Source: Chloroflexota bacterium
GTDB taxonomy: Bacteria; Chloroflexota; Dehalococcoidia; Lucifugimonadales; JADFKI01
Assembly: GCA_027623195.1 (NCBI GenBank)
Contig: JAQBUT010000004.1
Coordinates: 32,001-96,000, forward strand
Length of the DNA: 64,000 nt
Direction of reading: 5' to 3'
Part shown: in pieces, positions 2,768 to 33,901 of the stretch
How the letters are laid out: every line of letters begins with the position of its first letter
Position numbering within the stretch: the stretch's first letter is position 1
Made by a program: the position numbers and the translations under genes
The notes under the pieces: generated by a model
What the model saw: only the letters and a program-made list of their open reading frames with translations
Databases searched by the model: none
Told to the model about the DNA's origin: nothing

Positions 2768-5452
2768 CTATACCTGATTCATTATAACATCCCGGGACTT
2801 GGAGCCGTCACTGGGGCCTACCACGGATTTTTCTTCCAATTCGTCCATTAGCCTCGCAGCTCGCGGATATCCGATACGCAACCTCCGCTGGAGCAGAGAC
2901 GTTGAAAGCTTGTTGTGCGCATGAGCCAACTCAACGGCCTTACCGAACATTTCGTCCGCGTAGGAGTCTTTTCCATCACTGGTATCTCCGTCAGAGCCGT
3001 CCTCGCTTTTCACGGGACGCAAGAATATCTGGGGTGTCCATCCCCTGGGTGTGGACTGCCAGAATTTGACCAGGTTCTCTATCTCTGCGTCGGATACGTA
3101 AGCTCCCTGTATCCTCTGGGGCCTGGAGGCGTCACGAGGCAGGTACAACATGTCGCCCTTGCCTATGAGCTTCTCAGCTCCTGTTGCGTCCAAGATCGTC
3201 CGAGAGTCGATGGACGACGTAACCCCGAAGCTCACACGGCTGGGGAAATTAGCCTTTATGAGGCCTGTAACGACGTCCACTGAAGGTCTCTGCGTGGCCA
3301 AGATCAGGTGAATGCCGGTAGCCCGACCCAGTTGCGCCAGACGACACAGAGCCTGCTCCACGTCAAAGGCTGCGGTCATCATCAGGTCCGCAAGCTCGTC
3401 CACAACCACCATAAGGAACGGCATCTGGTCTTCAGGTACCCGCTTGTTGTACACCTCGATATTCCTGACGCTAACCTCTTCCATGCGGCGATAGCGGTCC
3501 ATCATTTCACTGATGACACCCTTGAGCATGCCGACCACTTCGTCGGAATTGACCACCACCGGCGCGAGCAGGTGAGGTATGCCGTTATAAGGCGTCAGTT
3601 CCACGCGTTTGGGATCTATAAGAAGCATGCGCATTTCCGCTGGGCTTTTCTCCATTAGCAGACATGTCAAAATGGAGTTCAGGCAGACGCTCTTACCGCT
3701 ACCCGTTGCGCCAGCAATCAGCAAGTGGGGCATCTTGGCCAGGTCAATTACGACGGTTTCGCCGCCGCTGCCCTTGCCGAATGCTACTGGCAGATCACCG
3801 GAACGCTTTAGGCTCTGATATTCCTCGGTATTCATAACGCCGAGGAGGGTTACGGGACTGGGATTTGCGTTAGGTATCTCTATGCCAATCTGTGCCTTGC
3901 CCATCACAGGAGTCTCTATGCGCAGGCTGGGCGTCTTCAAGGCCAGGGACAGGTCCTTCTCTCTAGAAAGGATGCTGTCGACCTTGACGCGGGTCTTCTG
4001 CTCCATGCGTGTCACGATCTGCTTGCCACGCTCGTCCAGAACAGGCAGGCCATTTTCGTCAACCTTCTTGACCAGCTTGTCGCGCCTGACCCAGCCAGGT
4101 ATAAATCCGTACATCGTAACTGTAGGCCCGGGCCTTATCTGACCGACCTCAACCTCGATGTCGTAGTCGCCAAGCGTCTTCTTAATGATCTGTGCGGTCT
4201 CTAATATCTGGCTCTCAGATATTCCTTGCCCAGGCAGGTCCTTGAGGATACTGATTGGAGGTTTAGACCACTTCTCCTTGCGTTTTCCCAGGAGCGAAAT
4301 TGTTTTCACAATGTGGCCGTTGGAACCGCTGCTTTCGTTGATGGGAATAACGATATTCTCAGGCTCGACGACAGGCTGTGGGGCAGGAGTAGAGTCCGAT
4401 CCCCAAAAGCGGTTGAACTTGTTCCTTAAACCCGAGGTGCCTTCGTCGTCCACAGAATCTTCTGGCTCCAGGCCGTCAGAGCGTTCAAATTCAATTACGT
4501 CGTCCAAAGCCGATGGCGACGCCTGGTCGAAAATACTTACGGGCTCTGCCACATCTGCCCAGGCGTTATTAATTCCATCGCTGCCGTGGCGTTCGAATGC
4601 CGAATTCAGCTCACCATTTATGTCACTGGAAATGTCTTCTTCATCCTCGTATTCGTCACCAAGAAACGAAGCGGAGGGAAGAGTGGAAATAATCGATCCG
4701 GTGAATGCTGACGCAGGTTCGGGCATATGCGTGCCACCGTTCTGCGCGGAGATATCAAGTTCATCCAAGGAACGCAGCTTTGCGTAAGAGGAGTAGGCAT
4801 CAGAGCCGTTAGAGGTCGTTTCAAGAACCGGCTCTGCCATTTCTGTTGGGAGATTTTTCTTACGATATATTTTGCCTATGCCCCGAGCGGCAAGGACCAA
4901 CGAAATATACGCGTAGACCAGTATCTTGCCCAGGGCCATCACGGCAAAAGCGGCGAATACCGGGGACGCAAGAGCCACTATTGCGGCTCCAATGCCAACC
5001 ATTCTAAGGACGGCTTGCCATTCCACGGGGCCTGCAATCAGGTCTCCGGTCTCTCCTCCCAGGTTCACATAGCCGTTCAGGGTGAAGGAGTGCAACAGCC
5101 AATCATAAGTCTGGAAAAACGAAAGTACGCCGAGGGTGAGTGCAACGAGACCTATGGAGGCGACCCACAGCCGATAGTGCTTGAAAAGACGAGGTCTGAG
5201 GGCCAGAACGCCGACGAAGGCCACTAGCCATAACGCCACTGGAATGACACCCACACCCAAGTAAAAGAGGACCTCGTTTTGTCCAGTGAAGTAAAGCTGG
5301 GCCAGATAATCGCGGAACCAGTAGATGGCCACGCCAATTGCCACAACAGGAATTGCCAGAAGCTCGTGCCATGTCAGCCGCGATGTAATCGCCGCCATTG
5401 GGGACTTGCCGGACTGTTGGGACAGAGTAGTGTCTGCGCTGCTCTTGGCCAT
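2768..5452 (-). CDS. ftsK: DNA translocase FtsK/SpoIIIE
   Basis: N-terminal TM helices, acidic linker, PHLLIAGATGSGKS, DELADLM, ATQRPSVDV, gamma domain SLLQRRLRIGYPRAARL; start placed at MAKSS after GAGG. Confidence 0.95.
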   Translation of the reverse strand: MAKSSADTTLSQQSGKSPMAAITSRLTWHELLAIPVVAIGVAIYWFRDYLAQLYFTGQNEVLFYLGVGVIPVALWLVAFVGVLALRPRLFKHYRLWVASIGLVALTLGVLSFFQTYDWLLHSFTLNGYVNLGGETGDLIAGPVEWQAVLRMVGIGAAIVALASPVFAAFAVMALGKILVYAYISLVLAARGIGKIYRKKNLPTEMAEPVLETTSNGSDAYSSYAKLRSLDELDISAQNGGTHMPEPASAFTGSIISTLPSASFLGDEYEDEEDISSDINGELNSAFERHGSDGINNAWADVAEPVSIFDQASPSALDDVIEFERSDGLEPEDSVDDEGTSGLRNKFNRFWGSDSTPAPQPVVEPENIVIPINESSGSNGHIVKTISLLGKRKEKWSKPPISILKDLPGQGISESQILETAQIIKKTLGDYDIEVEVGQIRPGPTVTMYGFIPGWVRRDKLVKKVDENGLPVLDERGKQIVTRMEQKTRVKVDSILSREKDLSLALKTPSLRIETPVMGKAQIGIEIPNANPSPVTLLGVMNTEEYQSLKRSGDLPVAFGKGSGGETVVIDLAKMPHLLIAGATGSGKSVCLNSILTCLLMEKSPAEMRMLLIDPKRVELTPYNGIPHLLAPVVVNSDEVVGMLKGVISEMMDRYRRMEEVSVRNIEVYNKRVPEDQMPFLMVVVDELADLMMTAAFDVEQALCRLAQLGRATGIHLILATQRPSVDVVTGLIKANFPSRVSFGVTSSIDSRTILDATGAEKLIGKGDMLYLPRDASRPQRIQGAYVSDAEIENLVKFWQSTPRGWTPQIFLRPVKSEDGSDGDTSDGKDSYADEMFGKAVELAHAHNKLSTSLLQRRLRIGYPRAARLMDELEEKSVVGPSDGSKSRDVIMNQV

Positions 5453-23804: not shown

Positions 23805-25442
23805 ATGGCAAAAGTTACCGGCAGTTACCTCATCGCAAGGACTTTGAAGGAAGAGGGTGTTGAAAAAATCTTCTACCTTATGGGCGGCCCTAACTTCGAC
23901 ATAATGATGGCAGCCCAGGACTTTGGCATAGAAACCATCGACTTCCGGCATGAGCAGGCAGCGGCCTTTGCCGCCCACGCATACGCTCGCGTCACCGGCA
24001 AGCCCGGCGTGGTTGCTGCGGCATCCGGTCCTGGCACGCTGAACCTTCTAACAGGCGTTTACACCGCATCAGTAGACTGCGCACCTATGTTGATCCTTGG
24101 AGGCGCAGGCCCCGTGCACGAAATCGGACGCGGCGCATTCCAAGAAATAGACCAAACGGGAATCATGAAGCCTCTTTGCAAGTACTGGCACCAGCCTACT
24201 AAAGCAGCCCGGTACCCCGAAATCGTTAGCACGGCCTACCGCCAATGCCTTTCCGGAACGCCCGGCCCGGTCTACATAGACTGCGGCGCAGACGTCCTCT
24301 ACGAAGAAATCGAAGAGTCAGATGCAGTCGCTCCTACCCACGCGGTCAGGAAGAGCGCACCCGCGGGCGACCCTGTTGCGATAAAAGAAGCCGTCGACAT
24401 GCTGGCAGATTCCAAGAAACCGATCATATTCGCAGGAGGCGGAGTCTTCTTCTCCGGCGGAGCGCCGGACCTGGAGAAGCTGGTCGACATGACCAGCACG
24501 CCGTTCTACACCGCCCCTATGTCACGCGGCCTGGTACCAGAGGATCATGTGGTCTCATTCCAGGCAGCCCGCAGCACGGCCATGCGCGAGACCGATCTGG
24601 TCCTGGTTATCGGCACTCGCATGAACTGGATGCTTCAGTATGGACGCCGGTTCCCCAACGCCAAGGTTGTACAGGTGGATATCAACGCCGCCGAGATCGC
24701 TCACAACCGTGACGTTGACCTGGGTATCGTTGGCGACGCCAAATTAATTCTGGGTCAGATGAACGCTGAGATCGAAGCCCGGCCGCAGGACTTCGCTGGC
24801 AGGCTGGAAGGCGAGTGGGTAACCCACCTACGCGATGAAAACGACCGCCGCGCAGAACGCAGCGCGGCCATACTTAACTCACCGGCCAAGCCCATTCATC
24901 CTCTGCGCCTCTGCAAGGAGATTGGCGACTTCCTGGACAGAGACGCCATTCTTTGCGTGGACGGCAACGAAATTCTGCACTTCGGACGGCAGTCGCTGGC
25001 AACATACGTGCCAGGCCATCGGCTTAACTCCGGCGTGACGGGGACCATGGGCGTGGGTCTGCCATACGGCATCGGAGCCAAGATTGCCAAGCCAGACAAT
25101 CAGGTGCTGGTACTTCACGGCGACGGCTCTATGGGCATGAACGCCATGGAGTTGGACACCTGTGTGAGGCACAGCATCAATGTGGTGACGGTCATCAGCA
25201 ACAACGCAGGCTGGACAGCCAGGACGCCCGACCACCGCAAGCCAGGCCGAGAGCTAGGCTTCACCAACTTCGATGGCATGGCCAGAGAGTTAGGCGGTTA
25301 CGGAGAGACGGTGGAGGACCCGGACGAGATTCGTCCTGCCCTTGAGCGAGCCTTCGCCAGCGGAAAGCCCGCCGTGATCAACGTCATCGTCGAGACTACT
25401 GCAGCCGGCGTATCCCGGTCATGGGGCGGCTCGAATATGTAG
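23805..25442 (+). CDS. thiamine-diphosphate-dependent enzyme (acetolactate synthase / 2-hydroxyacyl-CoA lyase-like)
   Basis: RHEQAAAFAA, SGPG..N, GAFQEID, PGPVYID, GTMGVG, ThDP motif GDGS-x(24)-NN. Confidence 0.92.
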   Translation: MAKVTGSYLIARTLKEEGVEKIFYLMGGPNFDIMMAAQDFGIETIDFRHEQAAAFAAHAYARVTGKPGVVAAASGPGTLNLLTGVYTASVDCAPMLILGGAGPVHEIGRGAFQEIDQTGIMKPLCKYWHQPTKAARYPEIVSTAYRQCLSGTPGPVYIDCGADVLYEEIEESDAVAPTHAVRKSAPAGDPVAIKEAVDMLADSKKPIIFAGGGVFFSGGAPDLEKLVDMTSTPFYTAPMSRGLVPEDHVVSFQAARSTAMRETDLVLVIGTRMNWMLQYGRRFPNAKVVQVDINAAEIAHNRDVDLGIVGDAKLILGQMNAEIEARPQDFAGRLEGEWVTHLRDENDRRAERSAAILNSPAKPIHPLRLCKEIGDFLDRDAILCVDGNEILHFGRQSLATYVPGHRLNSGVTGTMGVGLPYGIGAKIAKPDNQVLVLHGDGSMGMNAMELDTCVRHSINVVTVISNNAGWTARTPDHRKPGRELGFTNFDGMARELGGYGETVEDPDEIRPALERAFASGKPAVINVIVETTAAGVSRSWGGSNM

Positions 25443-25581: not shown

Positions 25582-26727
25582 ATGACCCCATCCAAACAAT
25601 CCGAAAGGCACGACTTTACGGCGCACCTAACTCGTTTTTCCCGGGTGCTGCGTGGGCATGGGTTTCTGATTGGCCCGCTGGAAACGGCGGACGTCATCAA
25701 AGCGATGAGCGCCGTGGATATGATGGACCGAGGTCGTGTTTACTGGGCACTGCGTAGCCTACTTGTCTCACGACAGGACGAGTTCCTCACATACGACATG
25801 CTCTTCGAAAAATTTTGGAACTTCGAGCCCATGCCGACTCGAGGTCCCTCCAGCGAAGGCTCCAAGAAGCTTGAAGAGTCGATGACCCTTCAGCGCAGAC
25901 CAAGATCGCTGTTCGGGGTGAGCAACGACCAGCAGTCCGAAGATATAGCCATCCAGGAAATGCGGGTCGGAGCCAGCGACGTGGAGCTAAACGCCAAGAA
26001 AGACTTTACCGTGATCCGCGCAGATGAGTTCTCGGAGCTTTCCCGCATCGCCGCGCGAATGGTGAAGGCCCTGGCCTCCCGCCCCGGACGCCGACGCAAG
26101 CGTCACAAGCGCAAAGGCACCCCCGACCTGCGTGGCGCAATGCGACTGAACCTCTCCTCCGGTGGCGACCCTATCATCGTGCCCCGACGCAAGCGCGTAC
26201 CCAGAGTCCCACGCCTGCTGGTGCTGCTGGACGTTAGCGGGTCCATGGAGCGGCACGTCCAGCTACTTCTGCAGTTGGCCTACGCAGTTTCCCAGCAGAC
26301 CAGGCGTGTGGAGGCCTTCGTATTCAGCACAAAGGTTACGCGGGTAACACGAGAGCTTGCCATGCCATCATTTACCGATGCCCTGAAGCGCATTGGCGAT
26401 GAGGCATCCCACTGGTCTGGCGGCACGCGCATTGGCGAGGCTCTGTCCACCGTGAACACAGACTTCGACTATCTGCTGGACAAGCACACAACCGTGTTCC
26501 TACTCAGCGACGGTTGGGACACCGGGGACCCCGACCAACTAGCATCCCAAATTCGGCGCATGCAGCGGCGCGTACGAAGCTTCGTGTGGCTAAACCCGCT
26601 AATGGGAACCCAGGACTACCAGCCTCTGACCCGAAGCCTGCAATCGGCCGAGCCATACGTGGACCACTTCGCCTCGGCCATGGACGTAGCGCATCTGCGG
26701 CGGCTACCCCAGTTACTACGCTCTTGA
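25582..26727 (+). CDS. coxE: CoxE-like VWA-domain protein
   Basis: LLDVSGSM (MIDAS), EAFVFST, WSGGTRIG, LSDGWDTGDP, WLNPL. Confidence 0.85.
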   Translation: MTPSKQSERHDFTAHLTRFSRVLRGHGFLIGPLETADVIKAMSAVDMMDRGRVYWALRSLLVSRQDEFLTYDMLFEKFWNFEPMPTRGPSSEGSKKLEESMTLQRRPRSLFGVSNDQQSEDIAIQEMRVGASDVELNAKKDFTVIRADEFSELSRIAARMVKALASRPGRRRKRHKRKGTPDLRGAMRLNLSSGGDPIIVPRRKRVPRVPRLLVLLDVSGSMERHVQLLLQLAYAVSQQTRRVEAFVFSTKVTRVTRELAMPSFTDALKRIGDEASHWSGGTRIGEALSTVNTDFDYLLDKHTTVFLLSDGWDTGDPDQLASQIRRMQRRVRSFVWLNPLMGTQDYQPLTRSLQSAEPYVDHFASAMDVAHLRRLPQLLRS

Positions 26728-26984: not shown

Positions 26985-27647
26985 ATGATGAACGCCGTCA
27001 ACATAAGGCCTTTGCGATTGCCCAGGGTGGTGTGGCCCCCAGAGGCAATAAACGCAGACCTTCACGTTGACGATTTCGTCCTTAGCCCCCAGGGACTAAA
27101 GACCTCATCGATGAGCCTTGGCATGATCCTTCCCTTGGCTGCGGCGCTTGCCTTTTCTGTGCTGATCGTATTCCTCATGGTCGAGTTCCGCCACGTCATC
27201 GCGGACCTTGGACGTTGGGGTTACCTGGGCGTATTTTTCATCGAGCTAGCCAACAGCGCGACTATCTTGTTCCCGACGGCTGGACAGTCGTATACCTTTG
27301 CGCTGGGAGTAACCCTCAACCCTCTTATGATCGGTCTGATCGGCGGCATAGGTTCCGCTATTGGCGAGTTGACCGGCTACGCAGTGGGCGCAAAGACGGG
27401 CCAGCGATTCAAGGGCGGGCGCATCTTTAACAAGCTCCAGAGATTCACAATGCGTTGGGGAGGCTTTTCGCTATTCTTGTTCGCTACGATACCCGGACCT
27501 TTTGAAGTGGCAGGTCTGTGGGCCGGCACTGTCCGGTATCCATTAGCACGCTTCTTCGTGTTCGTCGCTATCGGCAAGATACTAAAGGTTACCGCCTTCG
27601 CTCTGGCAGGTTACTACAGCCTCACCTGGCTGCTAGGCGGAAGCTAA
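26985..27647 (+). CDS. DedA/VTT-domain membrane protein
   Basis: GYLGVF, GSAIGELTGYAVG, FEVAGLWAG..RYPL.RFF....IGKILK; AAGGA RBS. Confidence 0.8.
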   Translation: MMNAVNIRPLRLPRVVWPPEAINADLHVDDFVLSPQGLKTSSMSLGMILPLAAALAFSVLIVFLMVEFRHVIADLGRWGYLGVFFIELANSATILFPTAGQSYTFALGVTLNPLMIGLIGGIGSAIGELTGYAVGAKTGQRFKGGRIFNKLQRFTMRWGGFSLFLFATIPGPFEVAGLWAGTVRYPLARFFVFVAIGKILKVTAFALAGYYSLTWLLGGS

Positions 27648-27782
27648 GTTTTCTGCCCAACTATGTCCTGCGCCCTCCGAACCACTTCAGGACACATAGC
27701 CCCAACTGAATTCCTGGATAGTATCTCGGAAACCGGCATGTGTTAGCATAACGCCTCATAATCCCTTCTCTCGAAGGAAACC

Positions 27783-29381
27783 ATACCAGAAATCGTTGTC
27801 GCCTTCGGCCTCATCGCCACCGTACTAATCATCAAAGCCTTGGCCTCGGGGCTGGTAGAACGCTCCATACTTTCGTTCCCCTTCCTATTCATAGCGTTAG
27901 GCTTTGTACTTGGAGAGCGAGGCGTCGGCCTGCTGAATCTGGGACCGCACAGCGCCATCCTCGAGATCGTTGCCACACTAACGCTGGCCCTGGTGTTATT
28001 CCTAGACGCCGTAAAACTGCAGGTCAAGGAACTGGGCAAACGTTGGCTCATTCCTTTTCTGATTCTGGTGCCAGGCACAGCGCTCATCATAATACTGGGG
28101 GCTCTGCCTCTGGCCTTGATTTTGGGTTTTGGCTGGGTCATGGCTTTCATAGGCGGCGCGCTTCTTGCCTCCACGGATCCTGTCGTATTACGCGATATCC
28201 TCCGCGACAACCGTATACCGAGGCCTGTGCGGCAAATCCTCAAGTTAGAAGGCGGCACGAACGACCTGGTGGTCTTGCCCGTCGTGCTGATTCTTATAGC
28301 GATAACCACCGCGCAAGCAGGAGGCCCGGAACAGTGGGCGCCATTTCTGATCCAACTGCTGATTCTAGGCCCGCTGATGGGAGCAGTCGTAGGCGTCGTA
28401 GGCGCATGGTGCATGTCCCGGGTGGACGAGAAGATGGGCATTCGGCTGGAGCATCAGGCGCTGTTTGGGATTGGCCTCGTGCTGGCTGCGTACGCGTCGG
28501 CAACCATAGTTGGCGGTGATGGCTTCCTGGGAGCATTCTTCGCGGGCATAGCCGTCGTAATGCTTAACCAGAAGCTTTGCACCTGCTTCCTGGACTACGG
28601 CGAGGTCACATCCGAAATGATGATGATGTTGGCCTTCGTCCTGTTCGGCGCTGTCCTGTCTGGCATCATCGACACAGTCCCGCTGGTACCGGCCCTAATC
28701 CTGGCTGCACTGGTAATCTTCGTGATTCGACCGTCCGTCATTAACCTTGTTCTGGTCAAGGCTAATATAAGCTGGGAGGCACGCGCCTTCATTAGCTGGT
28801 TCGGCCCAAGAGGGCTAAATTCGCTGCTGCTTGCTTTGCTCGTGGTCCAGGCGGCGGTGCCCGGCGCTGAACTGCTGCTGGCAACCGTTGGCATCGTGGC
28901 TCTGGCATCAGTGGTGATACACGGAGCATCCGCTTCACCTATAACGGCATGGTACGGCCGTAAAGCGTCAGAGGAAACGCTGGCGGAGGAGCGCCAGAGC
29001 ACGGTCGTGGGACTGTTCAGACCGGAAGAGCCAGAGCTGATCCGCATTACGCCGGACGAGCTTAACGAGATGATTTCCGGCGAGGACTCTCCTGTGATAT
29101 TGGACGTGCGCTCTAGATCGACCTTCGAGCACGATGACGCAGAGATTCCTAGAAGCGTGCGAGTCCTGCCTGATCAAGTCCTCGAATGGGCCAGCGATGA
29201 GTCGAATCGGGGCCTCGCTGACAGGCTGGTGGTCGCGTACTGCACTTGACCGGATGAGGCGACTAGCGCCCGTGTGGCGCGACATCTCATTTCCGAAGGA
29301 ATAAAGGCGGTCGCACTGGAGGGTGGATTCAACGCTTGGCGGGCCAAGTACCCGGTGAGCCCATTGACTGCAGTGGCCTAG
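27783..29381 (+). CDS. CPA1 (NhaP-type) cation/H+ antiporter fused to a selenocysteine-containing rhodanese domain (TGA 29247-29249 read as Sec)
   Basis: LVLFLDA, LASTDPV, EGGTND, WFGPRG (CPA1); ILDVRS...IP...VVAYCT-TGA-PDEATSARVA...ALEGGFNAW completes the rhodanese fold to TAG 29379-29381; SECIS-like hairpin right after TGA; probable ATA start after AAGGA. Confidence 0.85.
29250..29295 (+). promoter_or_regulatory. bacterial SECIS-like hairpin
   Basis: Lower stem cggatgag/ctcat(t)tccg, upper stem gcgcc/ggcgc, apical loop CGTGT with GT, loop begins 21 nt after TGA. Confidence 0.75.
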
Positions 29382-29488
29382 CCAATTTCCGTCCGATTCC
29401 CTCTACACACACACCATGTTCCTACCTGACGCAAACTGGCATATGGGTGTAGAATTAGGTATGCGATACGCCCCCGGAGGCCACCCAA

Positions 29489-31462
29489 CTGCCTGAATTC
29501 GAGATAGTCTCAGACTTTGTTCCCACTGGAGACCAGCCCGAAGCCATCAACAGGACAGTCGAGGGCATCAACAAGGGAATGACACATCAGACGTTGTTGG
29601 GTGTAACCGGCAGCGGCAAGACGTTTACCATGGCCTGCATCGTTGAAAAGGTGCAGCGTCCGACTCTTGTCCTAGTCCACAACAAGACGCTGGCAGCCCA
29701 ACTAGCCACGGAGTTCAAGGAGTTCTTCCCGAACAACGCCGTTGAGTACTTCGTCAGCTACTACGACTACTACCAGCCAGAGGCGTACGTTCCTCGCAGC
29801 GATACCTATATCGAGAAGGACGCCGACGTTAACGAGGAGTTGGACAAGCTCCGCCACGCCGCAACACGCGGTCTTCTTACTCGACGCGACGTGCTTATAG
29901 TGGCCTCTGTCTCCTGCATCTTCGGCCTGGGATCGCCAGAGGAGTACCAGAGCTTCGTCGCCTACATACGCAAAGGTGAGCAGCGCAACCGCGGCCGCCT
30001 GATGCGCCAACTTGTAGACATGCAGTACGAGAGAAATGACATGGACTTCTCCAGGGGCAAGTTCCGCATACGCGGCGACACCATGGAGATCCTGCCCGCG
30101 TACGACGAAGTAGGCGTACGCATCGAGTTCTGGGGCGACCAGGTAGACCGCATCATGATGGTGGACCCCCTCACCGGAGAGGTGTTGGGCGAACGAGATG
30201 ATATAGAGATATACCCTGCTAAGCACTTCGTGACCTCCCAGGAGAAGATGGACCTGGCGATGGTGGACATCGAGGAGGAGCTGCAGGAGCGTGTAGCGCT
30301 GTTTAAGGAACAGGGCAAGCCGCTTGAGGCTGAACGGATCGAATCCCGCACTCGCTACGACATAGAGATGATGCGTGAAACAGGCTACTGCGGAGGAGTC
30401 GAGAACTACTCTCGCCACCTGGCACGACGCGAGGCGGGTAGCTCACCGTACACCCTGCTCGACTACTTCCCTGAAGACTACCTGCTGTTCGTCGATGAGT
30501 CCCACATGACACTGCCCCAGGTACGTGGGATGTTCTTTGGAGACAAATCTCGGAAAGAAACCCTGGTGGACTTCGGATTCCGTCTCCCTTCAGCGCTGGA
30601 CAACCGGCCGCTTAATTTCAGCGAGTTCGAGGAGCGAGTCAATCAGGCCGTATACGTCTCTGCGACGCCCGGCCCATACGAGTATGAGCACTCACAGGCA
30701 ATCATCCCGCAGGTTATTCGGCCAACTGGGCTGATCGATCCCCTGATAGAGGTGAAGCCCACCAAAGGCCAGATCGACGACCTGCTATACCAGATAAGAA
30801 TGCGCGTGGAAAAGGGCCAACGATGCCTGGTAACTACGCTGACGAAGCGTATGTCCGAAGAGTTGGCGGATTTCTTACGCGAGATGGGCGTCAAGGTCCA
30901 CTACCTGCACTCGGAAATCGACACACTGGAACGCAGCGAGATCCTCCGAGACCTGCGTCTGGGCGTATACGATGTCGTGGTTGGCATCAACCTGCTCCGG
31001 GAAGGCTTGGACCTGCCGGAAGTTAGCCTCGTCGCCATACTTGACGCAGATAAAGAGGGCTACCTCAGGTCGCAGACTGCTCTGACGCAGACGGTAGGAC
31101 GCGCAGCGCGACACGTCGAAGGCCACGTCATCATGTACGCAGACGTTGTCACCGGCTCGATGAAGCGCACTATCGACGAGACTGATCGGCGACGGACCAT
31201 ACAGGAGGCCCATAACCTCGAACACGGCATAACGCCGCAGGGCATTCAAAAAACAATCCACGACATAACCGAGCGTGTAAAGGCCATTGCTGAAACAAGG
31301 ACGCCATACATCACTCAGAGAGATCTGCCAAAGGACGATATCCTGCGGCTAATCAAGGACCTGGAATCCCAGATGAAGACGGCCGCCAGGAACCTGGAGT
31401 TCGAAAAAGCCTCACTGTTGAGGGACCAGATAATAGACCTTCGCAAGGTAGTCGTCGACTGA
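29489..31462 (+). CDS. uvrB: excinuclease ABC subunit B
   Basis: [43 protein letters not shown]-terminal UVR coiled coil; conserved N-terminus requires a CTG start at 29489 after GGAGG. Confidence 0.97.
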
Positions 31463-33070: not shown

Positions 33071-33901
33071 ATGACAATAAACCCTCAGCAGGCCGCACAG
33101 GCTCGCGCACGAATCGAAGCTATGAAGCGTCAGTTCGAGCAGAAGCGGCAGGTAACGGATTCCCTATCCAACATCAAGCACAAGATCGGCGTCTACAGCG
33201 GCAAGGGTGGCGTAGGCAAGACCACTGTAGCGGTCAACATAGCCACAACCCTAGCCCATGGGGGAGCCTCCGTCGGCATCCTCGACGTTGACATAGACTG
33301 CCCCAACGTTGTTAAGGCCATGAAAGTCTCCGAGCACCCGGTGGTAGGCGAAGACAAACGTATGCTTCCTGCCGAGAAGTATGGCGTGAAGATCATGTCC
33401 ATGGGGTTCTTCCAGCAGAACGAGGACGAGGCCATTATCTGGCGCGGCCCTATGGTGCATAACGCCATCAATCAGCTTTTGCAGTCCACCGAATGGGGCA
33501 AGCTAGACTACCTAATCATCGATCTTCCTCCCGGGACATCCGATGCGCCGTTGACGGTTATGCAGGTCTTGGACCTGGATGGATTCGTAGTGGTGACTAC
33601 ACCTCAAGAGCTTGCCAAAATAGACGCAAAACGGTCCATCAACATGATCAAGAAACTGCAGGTCAGCGTCTTGGGTGTTGTGGAGAACCTGTCCGGTGAG
33701 ATTTTCGGGAGCGGCGCAGGAGAGGAATTGGCCGAAGAGATGGGTTTACGATTCCTTGGAAAGCTGGAGCTCCGGTCGGATTACCGCGATACCTCCAAGC
33801 CTACCGTGCTAACCAGCAACGTGGTGCTAGACGAGTACATGTCGCTGGTCGGCGGCATGCTTACGGCCCTGGAAGAGGCTGAGGCAGCGGAAGCAAGCTA
33901 A
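33071..33901 (+). CDS. mrp: Mrp/NBP35 (ApbC) family P-loop ATPase
   Basis: SGKGGVGKTT, IWRGPM, WGKLDYLIIDLPPGTSD, VTTPQ, GVVENLS. Confidence 0.9.
   Translation: MTINPQQAAQARARIEAMKRQFEQKRQVTDSLSNIKHKIGVYSGKGGVGKTTVAVNIATTLAHGGASVGILDVDIDCPNVVKAMKVSEHPVVGEDKRMLPAEKYGVKIMSMGFFQQNEDEAIIWRGPMVHNAINQLLQSTEWGKLDYLIIDLPPGTSDAPLTVMQVLDLDGFVVVTTPQELAKIDAKRSINMIKKLQVSVLGVVENLSGEIFGSGAGEELAEEMGLRFLGKLELRSDYRDTSKPTVLTSNVVLDEYMSLVGGMLTALEEAEAAEAS

Follow-up and report, generated by a model that had tools for sequence, protein, structure and literature searches.

An apparent stop codon in a Chloroflexota antiporter gene almost certainly encodes selenocysteine in a C-terminal rhodanese domain

Introduction

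KefC and KefB are glutathione-gated K+ efflux systems of the CPA2 family that rely on a KTN/RCK domain, use non-covalent glutathione ligands and involve no selenium. Rhodanese domains can also be attached to membrane helices, as in Escherichia coli YgaP, which has a single rhodanese domain and just two C-terminal helices. The title of PDB entry 5hbo describes the YgaP cysteine as S-nitrosylated and S-sulfhydrated. Standalone CxU rhodanese-like selenoproteins (‘form 3’) are listed in the accessible parts of PMC13188914 and PMC9312934, and the accessible text of a 2026 review names several membrane-transport proteins with predicted selenocysteine (Sec): a cation-transporting ATPase E1-E2, YeeE/YedE, the SO_0444 efflux transporter and SaoP/SaoB/SaoX. 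As described there, these proteins include no secondary antiporter of the CPA type and no rhodanese domain with Sec; neither ‘antiporter’ nor ‘exchanger’ appears as a word in the accessible text of the selenoprotein review.

Here we analyze a gene on the forward strand of a 64,000-nucleotide stretch of Chloroflexota DNA (the window), for which an original prediction had proposed a CPA1 antiporter fused to a Sec-containing rhodanese and had noted that no characterized example of this architecture was known. Our literature searches agree with the latter point: CxU rhodanese selenoproteins are already known, but we came across no published account of one fused to an antiporter. Among selenoprotein models, the tail is matched best by NF041203 (rhodanese_LYCAU; 75.9 bits, profile 18–124 of 126), which shares the rhodanese fold with C-x-U at the active-site loop. 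The score falls short of the curated 115-bit cut-off (72.4 bits in a six-frame search), and the known family differs in being standalone, with ~126 residues and an L-Y-C-A-U motif, whereas here the motif reads Y-C-[TSA]-U-P-x-E and the domain sits at the C terminus of a membrane transporter of 532 residues. YgaP (2mrm, 5hbo), which appears at ranks 33 and 43 in the Foldseek list of structural neighbors of the tail, is also a single-domain rhodanese on membrane helices, but it lacks a transporter, Sec and C-x-U and has a single catalytic Cys. Under our preferred reading, the Kef systems would offer a functional analogy, not family membership, as antiporters gated by a cytoplasmic C-terminal domain that senses thiols or electrophiles; they differ in family (CPA2, not CPA1), in sensing domain (KTN/RCK) and in having no part for selenium.

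Results

The table-11 open-reading-frame list closes this gene at 29249, on a TGA (29247–29249) that directly follows ...VVAYCT, as had been read originally. Past this codon the frame remains open for the predicted 43 codons (PDEATSARVARHLISEGIKAVALEGGFNAWRAKYPVSPLTAVA), up to a TAG at 29379–29381, and the whole selenoprotein coding sequence, 27783–29381 including the stop, specifies 532 residues, in agreement with the ~532-residue antiporter–rhodanese fusion that had been proposed. Both domains are recognized in the read-through product. PF00999 (Na_H_Exchanger) matches residues 16–390 (27828–28952), the CPA1 (NhaP-type) cation/proton antiporter domain, with 127.8 bits against a gathering cut-off of 26.2. 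PF00581 (Rhodanese) matches residues 423–521 (29049–29345, with the TGA inside) over profile positions 1–101 of 102, with 37.9 bits against a gathering cut-off of 22.2, and this match is complete only because the tail beyond the TGA is included.

Among the best 80 of 314 related stretches from genome contigs, the Sec column reads TGA in 62 and Cys in 17, with the domain absent from the remaining one, and TGA is retained even in relatives with just 49–62% protein identity. A search of 301 genomes from the class gave eight other fused matches, and all 8 carry exactly one TGA, at the same YCT-TGA-P column. The database homologues mostly break off at this point: of the 120 matches listed, 112 stop one residue before the Sec column, 4 read CxC, 2 read CxS and 2 are otherwise broken. 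Across the family the Sec motif is C-[TSADNG]-U (Y-C-T-U in the window), Ser replaces Sec in two forms and one form is without Cys487; the Cys homologues read YC-x-C-P-x-E, matching the YCxCPxE that had been forecast. Information per codon position past the TGA is 1.09/1.16/0.41 bits (codons 13–35, 65 sequences) and upstream of it 0.93/1.12/0.55 bits (65 sequences), a similarity in periodicity that shows coding selection on the tail. The homologues thus show what the original prediction had anticipated, Cys or TGA at the column together with a conserved, codon-periodic downstream frame. Close relatives do not uniformly carry TGC or TGT, given TGA in 62 of those best 80 of 314, and conservation continues 3' of the TGA as coding periodicity in the tail.

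A hairpin lies behind the TGA, where it had been predicted, with stem strands at 29266–29270 and 29276–29280 (GCGCC/GGCGC), a CGUGU loop at 29271–29275 and a gap of 21 nt from UGA to loop. A 64-nt fold of the window (−18.8 kcal/mol, z −0.36) is matched by 69 of 200 shuffles, which fold equally well, so we relied on comparative data alone. The consensus fold of 64 sequences has an energy of −8.41 kcal/mol, and pairing in the 5-bp core stem holds in 98.8% of 320 cells (64 distinct sequences), compared with 20–61% for slid controls. Three of these cells are compensatory, 20 are G.U and 4 are unpaired, and support for the hairpin comes mostly from conservation more than from compensatory change. 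In 64 distinct Sec forms the wobble bases are nearly frozen (C21 in 61/64, C24 in 64/64, U27 in 58/64, G30 in 64/64 and G33 in 60/64), whereas in 14 Cys forms the hairpin wobble positions are close to random; wobble positions flanking the hairpin are saturated. CGT occupies the loop codon in 53 of 59 genes but makes up 12% of the 1,485 CGN Arg codons elsewhere in those genes. The Cys forms nonetheless pair in 77% of stem cells, because amino acids fix two of the five pairs. Taken as a comparison of sequences, the hairpin signal lies far beyond chance.

According to the legend of Fig. 2 in PMC13188914, a bacterial SECIS (bSECIS) element has an apical loop of 3–9 nt, an upper stem of 4–16 bp, a position 16–37 nt from the UGA, a G in the first two loop positions (G[G|U]) and a minimum free energy of −7.5 kcal/mol or below. 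The bacterial SECIS that had been proposed agrees with that legend on all four published counts (loop CGUGY of 5 nt, stem of 5 bp, spacing of 21 nt), and from the conserved pairing, the frozen wobble bases and this description we assign the putative bSECIS core to 29266–29280. An Rfam scan of 29150–29420 at E ≤ 10 returned no SECIS family, its sole match being an unrelated weak sRNA, Ref68 (E 0.34). The minimum-free-energy fold also predicts, in the window only, an extended lower stem at 29251–29295; this is probably not a conserved part, and we dropped it from consideration as such on finding it absent from the consensus fold of 64 sequences.

The machinery for Sec insertion, proposed as a check on the prediction, is present in full in the genome. 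selB (311 bits), selA (554 bits) and selD (385 bits) match above their curated cut-offs, selC is found as a tRNA-Sec with anticodon tca called by ARAGORN, and the selD gene itself contains one in-frame TGA. Of 30 Sec-form genomes, 29 have selA above cut-off; of 14 Cys-form genomes, 4 do.

Of the originally claimed span, 27783–29381, the stop and the frame stand, but 27783 begins an ATA, not a usual start codon. Alignment with relatives places the family start position at this unusual ATA (27783–27785), and direct reading finds a Shine-Dalgarno-like GAAGGA at 27773–27778, ahead of it; the closest relatives (L035 and L046) carry GAAGGA at the same place, ahead of ATG. All 59 relatives examined have a usual start codon at the aligned position: ATG (25), GTG (18) or TTG (16). 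In an independent study, contigs that are 99.4% identical read G at 27785, giving ATG, and retain the TGA; a possible source run reads A. Because its own copy begins with ATA, the strain represented by the window may express the antiporter–rhodanese gene poorly. Additional frameshifts or stops occur in 6 of 79 domain-bearing loci, and the copy in genome G296 (L029/L034), from the class search, is frameshifted as well. These disrupted copies reflect either gene decay in some lineages or assembly errors. A further copy, L053, ends at a TAA at codon 376 with C-D-C still present; we had considered it as an unfused control and dropped it, because a truncated copy of this kind is uninformative in that role.

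The rhodanese domain is modeled with a pLDDT of 95.6, and Foldseek relates it to single-domain rhodaneses with probability 1.00 and TM-scores of 0.7–0.8; neighbors include CoA-disulfide/persulfide reductase-RHD, persulfide dioxygenase-rhodanese and membrane-anchored YgaP. In each solved rhodanese chain, we presumed the catalytic residue to be that assigned by a C-x4-R-[ST] motif. The Sec column (Sec489, 29247–29249) aligns without gaps with this cysteine in 6mxv (both domains), 3iwh and domain 2 of 1yt8; in BH2092 (3o3w/3nhv), the Y-C aligns instead with Y-C487. Cys487 (TGC, 29241–29243), two residues before Sec in the family alignment, is Cys in 82 of 83 family members, the exception (L058) reading Y-A-U. 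Sec489 probably stands where the rhodanese active-site loop canonically has its catalytic residue, and Cys487, at −2, is its probable partner thiol. The loop itself, U-P-D-E-A-T, is acidic, unlike the loops of classical sulfurtransferases.

The transporter domain, searched against the PDB as a single sequence, returned nothing at E ≤ 1e-5; a family profile over residues 14–379 matches PaNhaP (4cz8) and MjNhaP1 (4czb), and the predicted helix count agrees with a 13-TM fold. The A-S-T-D-P and N-D motifs are conserved, leaving the TDP and ND ion-site motifs intact, with S130, D132, E156 and D161 invariant in the family and N160 nearly so. We take the motifs around S130, D132, E156, N160 and D161 to serve the ion site as they do in the NhaP structures. 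In the alignment to PaNhaP, its A-T-D-P and N-D stand opposite the family motifs, and the T-D-P of the unwound helix, N-D and the G-P-R-G of the second unwound helix of the solved proteins are all kept, although those proteins have neither a rhodanese tail nor Cys at 266 and 268. NCBIfam equivalogs for potassium/proton antiporters score far below their cut-offs (NF003716, 146.5 versus 355 bits; NF003715, 120.9 versus 309 bits).

The only conserved Cys/Sec columns in the family are 266, 268, 487 and 489. The first two form a C-x-C motif (C266-T-C268, 28578–28586), at the start of the predicted helix spanning residues 263–298; of 83 fused family members, all 83 have Cys at 266 and 81 have it at 268, and both are absent from 4 of 4 unfused CPA1 relatives and from the PaNhaP alignment, a small control with one solved structure. 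Helix parity suggests that this motif lies on the cytoplasmic side. At the junction of transporter and rhodanese, residues 400–412 (28980–29018) form a conserved linker motif, L-x-E-E-R-x-S-x-x-x-G-L-F, in which E402, G410, L411 and F412 are invariant both in A1 (Sec and Cys forms) and in A5 (Cys forms only). A docking prediction of transporter (1–400) against rhodanese (416–528), for Cys-form homologues only and with P0028 (62% identical to the window's protein) as first row, gave scores of 0.01 and 0.00, where the mark is 0.32. Across 87 loci we found no conserved operon partner: VWA, DedA/VTT, UvrB and ORF-333 neighbors are common to just 2–3 of the 87, and a TPP enzyme neighbor, 26% identical, to 7.

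Discussion

The apparent stop in this antiporter gene, judged by comparative sequence evidence, almost certainly encodes selenocysteine. The gene as a whole very probably specifies a single selenoprotein, in which a 13-helix NhaP-type (CPA1) antiporter is followed by a linker and a C-terminal rhodanese, with the UGA decoded as Sec by way of the hairpin. In this model, the organism's SelB/tRNA-Sec system would decode the UGA at 29247–29249, with a GC hairpin inside the coding sequence itself, 5 bp long and capped by a C-G-U-G-Y loop 21 nt past the UGA, as the directing signal. An ordinary stop, created by nonsense mutation or sequencing error and followed by a decaying remnant of the domain, would fit the public gene calls that finish at the TGA, the odd ATA start in the window's copy and the disruption of some relatives. 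We consider this extremely improbable, because TGA stands at the same column in 62 loci, down to 49–62% identity and in an independent strain too, the tail has coding periodicity, Cys occupies the column in 17 loci, the hairpin stays frozen in the Sec forms but not in the Cys forms, and the Sec machinery is encoded in this genome and goes together with TGA across genomes. The UGA could instead act mainly as a stop, making a 488-residue antiporter the usual product and the full selenoprotein one made only when selenium is plentiful. Such a selenium-dependent isoform switch draws some credit from bacterial physiology, as release factor 2 competes with Sec insertion in bacteria, and a truncated product would retain the entire transporter core. 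By contrast, a rhodanese cut where strand 483–486 ends, and lacking its last helix-strand-helix, could not fold; strong purifying selection on the tail and hairpin marks the full-length form as the selected product, and the Cys forms yield full-length protein only. We regard a switch of this kind as very unlikely.

What the C-x-U pair does for the transporter is a less certain matter. Our preferred reading, to which we give slightly less than an even chance, is that the pair, being highly reactive, senses redox state, persulfides or electrophiles and that its own state gates the antiporter. The rhodanese domain would be cytoplasmic and C-terminal, the gating states could be a selenol, a selenenylsulfide or a Se-S-S adduct, and the signal would reach the antiporter through the conserved linker, possibly also through the family-specific cytoplasmic C266-x-C268, so that cation/proton exchange would be coupled to cellular thiol or sulfane-sulfur status. 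A more specific version, in which C487-x-U489 and C266-x-C268 (helix 10) make up one intramolecular selenosulfide/disulfide relay, or a four-ligand site common to both pairs, and thereby switch the antiporter on or off, strikes us as unlikely. The protein may also be a real selenoprotein whose rhodanese works as a membrane-tethered sulfur/selenium transferase, or as a persulfide/selenide carrier, and does not regulate the antiporter, the fusion merely localizing the enzyme or giving it a loose link to pH or cation flux nearby. Rhodanese domains are mostly catalytic, the catalytic Cys of four solved domains stands opposite the Sec column, the structural neighbors include enzyme-linked rhodaneses, and standalone CxU rhodanese selenoproteins occur without any transporter. 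This proposal is nevertheless doubtful: rhodaneses do not act on the CPA1 substrates Na+, K+ and H+, the linker motif and transporter C-x-C are conserved along with the domain although a passive tether needs neither, the acidic active-site loop lacks the basic residues of thiosulfate sulfurtransferases, and sulfur-metabolism neighbors are not conserved. Finally, exactly four Cys/Sec columns are conserved, as two vicinal pairs that are both specific to the fused family, and C266, C268, C487 and U489 could accordingly form one cytoplasmic site for a soft metal or metalloid (Zn, Cu(I), Cd, Hg or As(III)) in a metal-sensing or metal-handling transporter. With metal-resistance neighbors absent and CPA1 ion-site residues the same as in ordinary Na+/K+/H+ exchangers, we think a metal site quite unlikely.

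Several consequences follow for how this family is recorded and studied. Annotation that ends at the UGA leaves the rhodanese domain broken and selenium dependence invisible, and a widespread family is recorded ~44 residues short, with 112 of the 120 database homologues listed stopping at the UGA; truncated calls affect many Chloroflexota and related bacteria. A secondary ion transporter would join the selenoproteins as a new class, beside proteins that the accessible text of the 2026 review presents as mostly redox-related, plus some metal-handling transporter components. The carriers include marine Dehalococcoidia, among them UBA1141, which is in the BSepDB top-ten table of the richest bacterial selenoproteomes. 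Related metagenome-assembled genomes bear the labels Nitrolancea, Rubrobacter, Roseiflexaceae and Herpetosiphonaceae, and one natural Cys form belongs to an Anaerolineae member. Natural Sec, Cys and Ser forms coexist in the family and provide a ready series for probing why selenium is preferred at the site.

If the relay or shared four-ligand site were real, the protein would be the first ion transporter with selenium-dependent gating by redox or persulfide chemistry, a covalent-chemistry counterpart to glutathione-gated KefC that would be widespread in marine SAR202/Dehalococcoidia, other Chloroflexota and Actinomycetota. More generally, if the C-x-U pair does gate the antiporter, pH and cation homeostasis in these bacteria would be tied directly to cellular thiol and sulfane-sulfur chemistry.

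Results

A conserved selenoprotein gene shortened by public gene calls

The gene at 27783..29381 (+) genuinely encodes a conserved selenoprotein, and public gene calls have shortened it. The original prediction placed an in-frame TGA in a rhodanese active-site loop, at the point where the ORF track stops, and this arrangement stands: the table-11 ORF ends at 29249, TGA 29247-29249 lies directly 3' of ...VVAYCT, and the same frame runs on for 43 codons to TAG 29379-29381. The roughly 532-residue antiporter-rhodanese product it envisaged was also recovered, with both PF00999 (Na_H_Exchanger, residues 16-390, 127.8 bits) and PF00581 (Rhodanese, residues 423-521) matching the 532-residue read-through protein. 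Because the PF00581 match spans profile positions 1-101 of 102, the rhodanese domain is whole only when the tail is included.

In the window strain the start position (27783-27785) is ATA, with GAAGGA upstream; ATG, GTG or TTG occupies the aligned codon in 59/59 relatives. Contigs from three runs of an independent estuary study carry a 99.4%-identical strain (10 differences in 1,751 bases) with G at 27785, giving ATG, and with the TGA unchanged, and the run that is possibly the source of the window has A at 27785 (ATA) at a depth of 33.6. The window strain may therefore initiate weakly, or start at TTG 27840, at a cost of 19 first-helix residues.

Directly upstream, 26985-27647 encodes a DedA/VTT-domain membrane protein whose gene adjoins the antiporter gene in only 3/87 related loci; DedA proteins have been linked to selenite uptake. 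UvrB downstream (29579-31462) and a CoxE-like VWA protein (25582-26727) and a TPP enzyme upstream are ordinary neighbors, and a ParA/NUBPL-type ATPase is encoded at 33071-33901. In seven loci of a 'YCS-U' subclade (L039, L043, L047, L049, L061, L072, L099), a gene for a TPP-dependent enzyme with about 26% identity to 23805-25442 sits just upstream of the antiporter gene. Comparison of neighbors across related loci revealed no conserved partner gene beside the antiporter gene.

Conservation of the TGA and its downstream frame

The top 120 database homologues are 64-99% identical, and 112 of them stop one residue short of the Sec column, at ...YC-[T/S/A/D/N/G]; these short proteins, of 484-488 residues, are named 'cation:proton antiporter'. 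The others read C-x-C (four) or C-x-S (two), or are otherwise broken or cut (two). Matches occurred in 13 of 301 sampled genomes of the class, 12 besides the window's own; eight of these 12 carry fused forms, each with exactly one TGA, at the YCT-TGA-P column (8/8), and the remaining four are unfused CPA1 proteins of about 30% identity. A scan of species-representative genomes yielded 314 related stretches, and in the best 80 of these 314, on which our counts rest, the Sec column holds TGA in 62 and a Cys codon in 17, with one stretch lacking the rhodanese. Carriers are labelled Dehalococcoidia/SAR202, Thermomicrobia/Nitrolancea, Chloroflexia, Roseiflexaceae, Herpetosiphonaceae, Caldilineaceae, Rubrobacteraceae, Acidimicrobiia and others, and Anaerolineae are the main carriers of Cys forms.

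Information at codon positions 1/2/3 was 1.09/1.16/0.41 bits for codons 13-35 after the TGA, a region taken 3' of the hairpin (65 Sec-form sequences, leaving out L046 and L103, which have indels), and 0.93/1.12/0.55 bits for the 12 codons upstream. These like patterns indicate that the tail evolves as protein-coding sequence, so that both expectations of the original prediction, Cys or TGA at this column and a conserved frame beyond it, were realized. Additional frameshifts or stops occur in 6/79 domain-bearing loci (L046, L055, L060, L063, L072 and L109, with frameshifts and TAG/TAA stops; L060 has a second TGA at about codon 118). L053 is a truncated copy, and the copy in genome G296 (L029/L034) is frameshifted; the disrupted copies are either decaying genes or assembly errors. 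One Sec form, L058 (locus 3692-4072), reads Y-Y-A-U, lacking the Cys at -2 but retaining the TGA and hairpin.

Recoding hairpin and selenocysteine machinery

The hairpin that had been proposed just after the TGA, with a CGTGT loop 21 nt downstream, is present as stem 29266-29270/29276-29280 with loop CGUGU. Numbering the T of TGA as 1, wobble bases within nt 19-34 are nearly frozen in 64 distinct Sec forms (C21 61/64, C24 64/64, U27 58/64, G30 64/64, G33 60/64), adjacent wobble positions in the same forms carry just 0.07-0.7 bits, and the 14 Cys forms examined have nearly random bases at the five. This conservation is not a product of codon bias, as the loop codon is CGT in 53/59 genes (five disrupted loci left out) versus 12% of the 1,485 CGN arginine codons elsewhere in them. 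The consensus structure is a 5-bp helix (nt 20-24 with 30-34) closed by a C-G-U-G-Y loop, with pairing in 98.8% of 320 cells (20 G.U, 3 compensatory, 4 unpaired) against 20-61% in slid controls; L110, a locus added later, contributes one further U-A compensatory pair. Pairing persists in 77% of Cys-form cells because G20:C34 and G22:C32 are fixed by the amino acids. The window's hairpin alone folds no better than shuffles (z -0.36), and an Rfam search matched it to no family. It lies within all four bSECIS criteria set out in PMC13188914 (Fig. 2 legend): a 3-9-nt loop, a 4-16-bp upper stem, a G among the first two loop nucleotides with G or U next, and 16-37-nt spacing with MFE <= -7.5 kcal/mol.

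All four components of the machinery on which the original prediction depended (selA/selB/selC/selD) are found in the genome above curated cut-offs: selB (311 bits, 334 with a C-terminal piece), selA (554 bits), selD (385 bits) and tRNA-Sec (63.4 bits; anticodon tca by ARAGORN). A single in-frame TGA lies within the selD gene (L019, G000:C46:6726-7649, minus strand), which makes SelD itself a probable selenoprotein here. Although selA exceeds its cut-off in 29/30 Sec-form genomes versus 4/14 Cys-form genomes, these genomes are mutually related and many are incomplete MAGs, which makes the co-occurrence a pattern rather than a test. One unpublished genome (G319, via L083) is among the 30 Sec-form genomes, the 62 TGA loci, and the rows of the alignment of relatives and the tree; without it the counts become 28/29 for selA and 61/79 for TGA loci, and no claim depends on it alone.

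Protein architecture and history

Over residues 14-379 the family profile aligns with PaNhaP (4cz8) and MjNhaP1 (4czb), and the transporter motifs A-S-T-D-P, N-D and G-P-R-G are conserved. Helices in the full-length model (pLDDT 78.8, pTM 0.71) follow the pattern of the 13-TM fold. Folded alone (pLDDT 95.6), the tail is by Foldseek a canonical single-domain rhodanese, with TM-scores of 0.7-0.8 to BH2092, 3iwh/3mzz, Alr3790 and YgaP. In the models, C487-T488-U489 sits between strand 483-486 (VVAY) and a helix that starts at 490. Gapless HMMER alignments set the Sec column opposite the catalytic Cys in both domains of 6mxv, in 3iwh and in domain 2 of 1yt8, whereas in BH2092, with its own longer loop YCWGPAC, Y-C aligns with Y-C487 instead. 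Sec therefore probably stands where the canonical nucleophile does, two residues after Cys487.

Only four columns conserve Cys/Sec across 83 fused sequences: 266 (Cys in 83/83), 268 (81/83; the Cys forms L041 and P0069 read C-D-S), 487 (82/83) and 489 (Cys or Sec in 81/83, Ser in the other two). C266/C268 fall in L-C-[DT]-C-F (28578-28586) at the start of helix 263-298; none of the four unfused relatives has the pair, and Cys is likewise lacking at this place in PaNhaP. Helix parity, given a cytoplasmic C-terminus, would place the pair at the cytoplasmic end of TM10. The linker E402...G410-L411-F412 is invariant in Sec and Cys forms.

We rooted a quick IQ-TREE tree on four unfused proteins; its 87 rows left out the six disrupted loci, L053 and three duplicates and took in five database proteins, P0060 not among them. 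The deepest fused branches of the tree are Sec forms with Cys forms nested among them, well-supported branches require at least three changes between forms, and both Ser forms fall within one Sec subclade; with long outgroup branches, a Sec ancestor of the fused family is only likely. The full-length database Ser forms, P0013 and P0053 (C-S-S), represent 73 and 65 member sequences; P0053 may be decaying, as its closing motif is altered (E-G for G-G, G for W). L096, a Cys form from a MAG labelled Bacteroidetes, groups tightly with Anaerolineae copies, which could reflect binning error or gene transfer.

Discussion

Comparison among relatives establishes, at the level of sequence, SelB-dependent decoding of the UGA at the in-frame hairpin as the predicted route to a full-length antiporter-rhodanese selenoprotein. 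What the fused module does is a matter for more tentative proposals. We favor, at somewhat short of an even chance, a redox-gating role in which the C-x-U pair, which would be a very reactive selenol/thiol couple facing the cytoplasm, acts as a sensor whose oxidation, persulfidation or alkylation gates antiport. KefC, which is glutathione-gated, offers a possible analogy.

The module could instead be a tethered enzyme, an unlikely but serious alternative; we rank the sensor ahead of it because sulfur compounds are not substrates of a CPA1 transporter, the linker and the transporter C-x-C are conserved together with the domain, and a partner gene is absent. A soft-metal site shared between the parts seems improbable, and a selenium-dependent switch between two isoforms slightly more so.

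As the original prediction held, CxU rhodanese-like selenoproteins exist: 'rhodanese-like form 3' (CxU, NF041203) appears in the reviews PMC13188914 and PMC9312934, and PMC1976440 describes rhodanese selenoproteins of a worm symbiont, a UxU form included. Against NF041203, however, the window's tail scores 75.9 bits, below the 115-bit cut-off. The words 'antiporter' and 'exchanger' are absent from PMC13188914, PMC9312934, PMC2398784, PMC1976440, PMC5029168, PMC12013277 and PMC13326102. Searches of the full-text literature gave no relevant publication on such an antiporter selenoprotein, judged by titles and abstracts among the matches listed, and none in full text on rhodanese together with NhaP, in keeping with the earlier impression that this architecture has no characterized example. 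This UGA may already be entered among the rhodaneses in catalogues built on homology, BSepDB for example. The novelty is that a known CxU rhodanese selenoprotein module here forms part of a transporter fusion.
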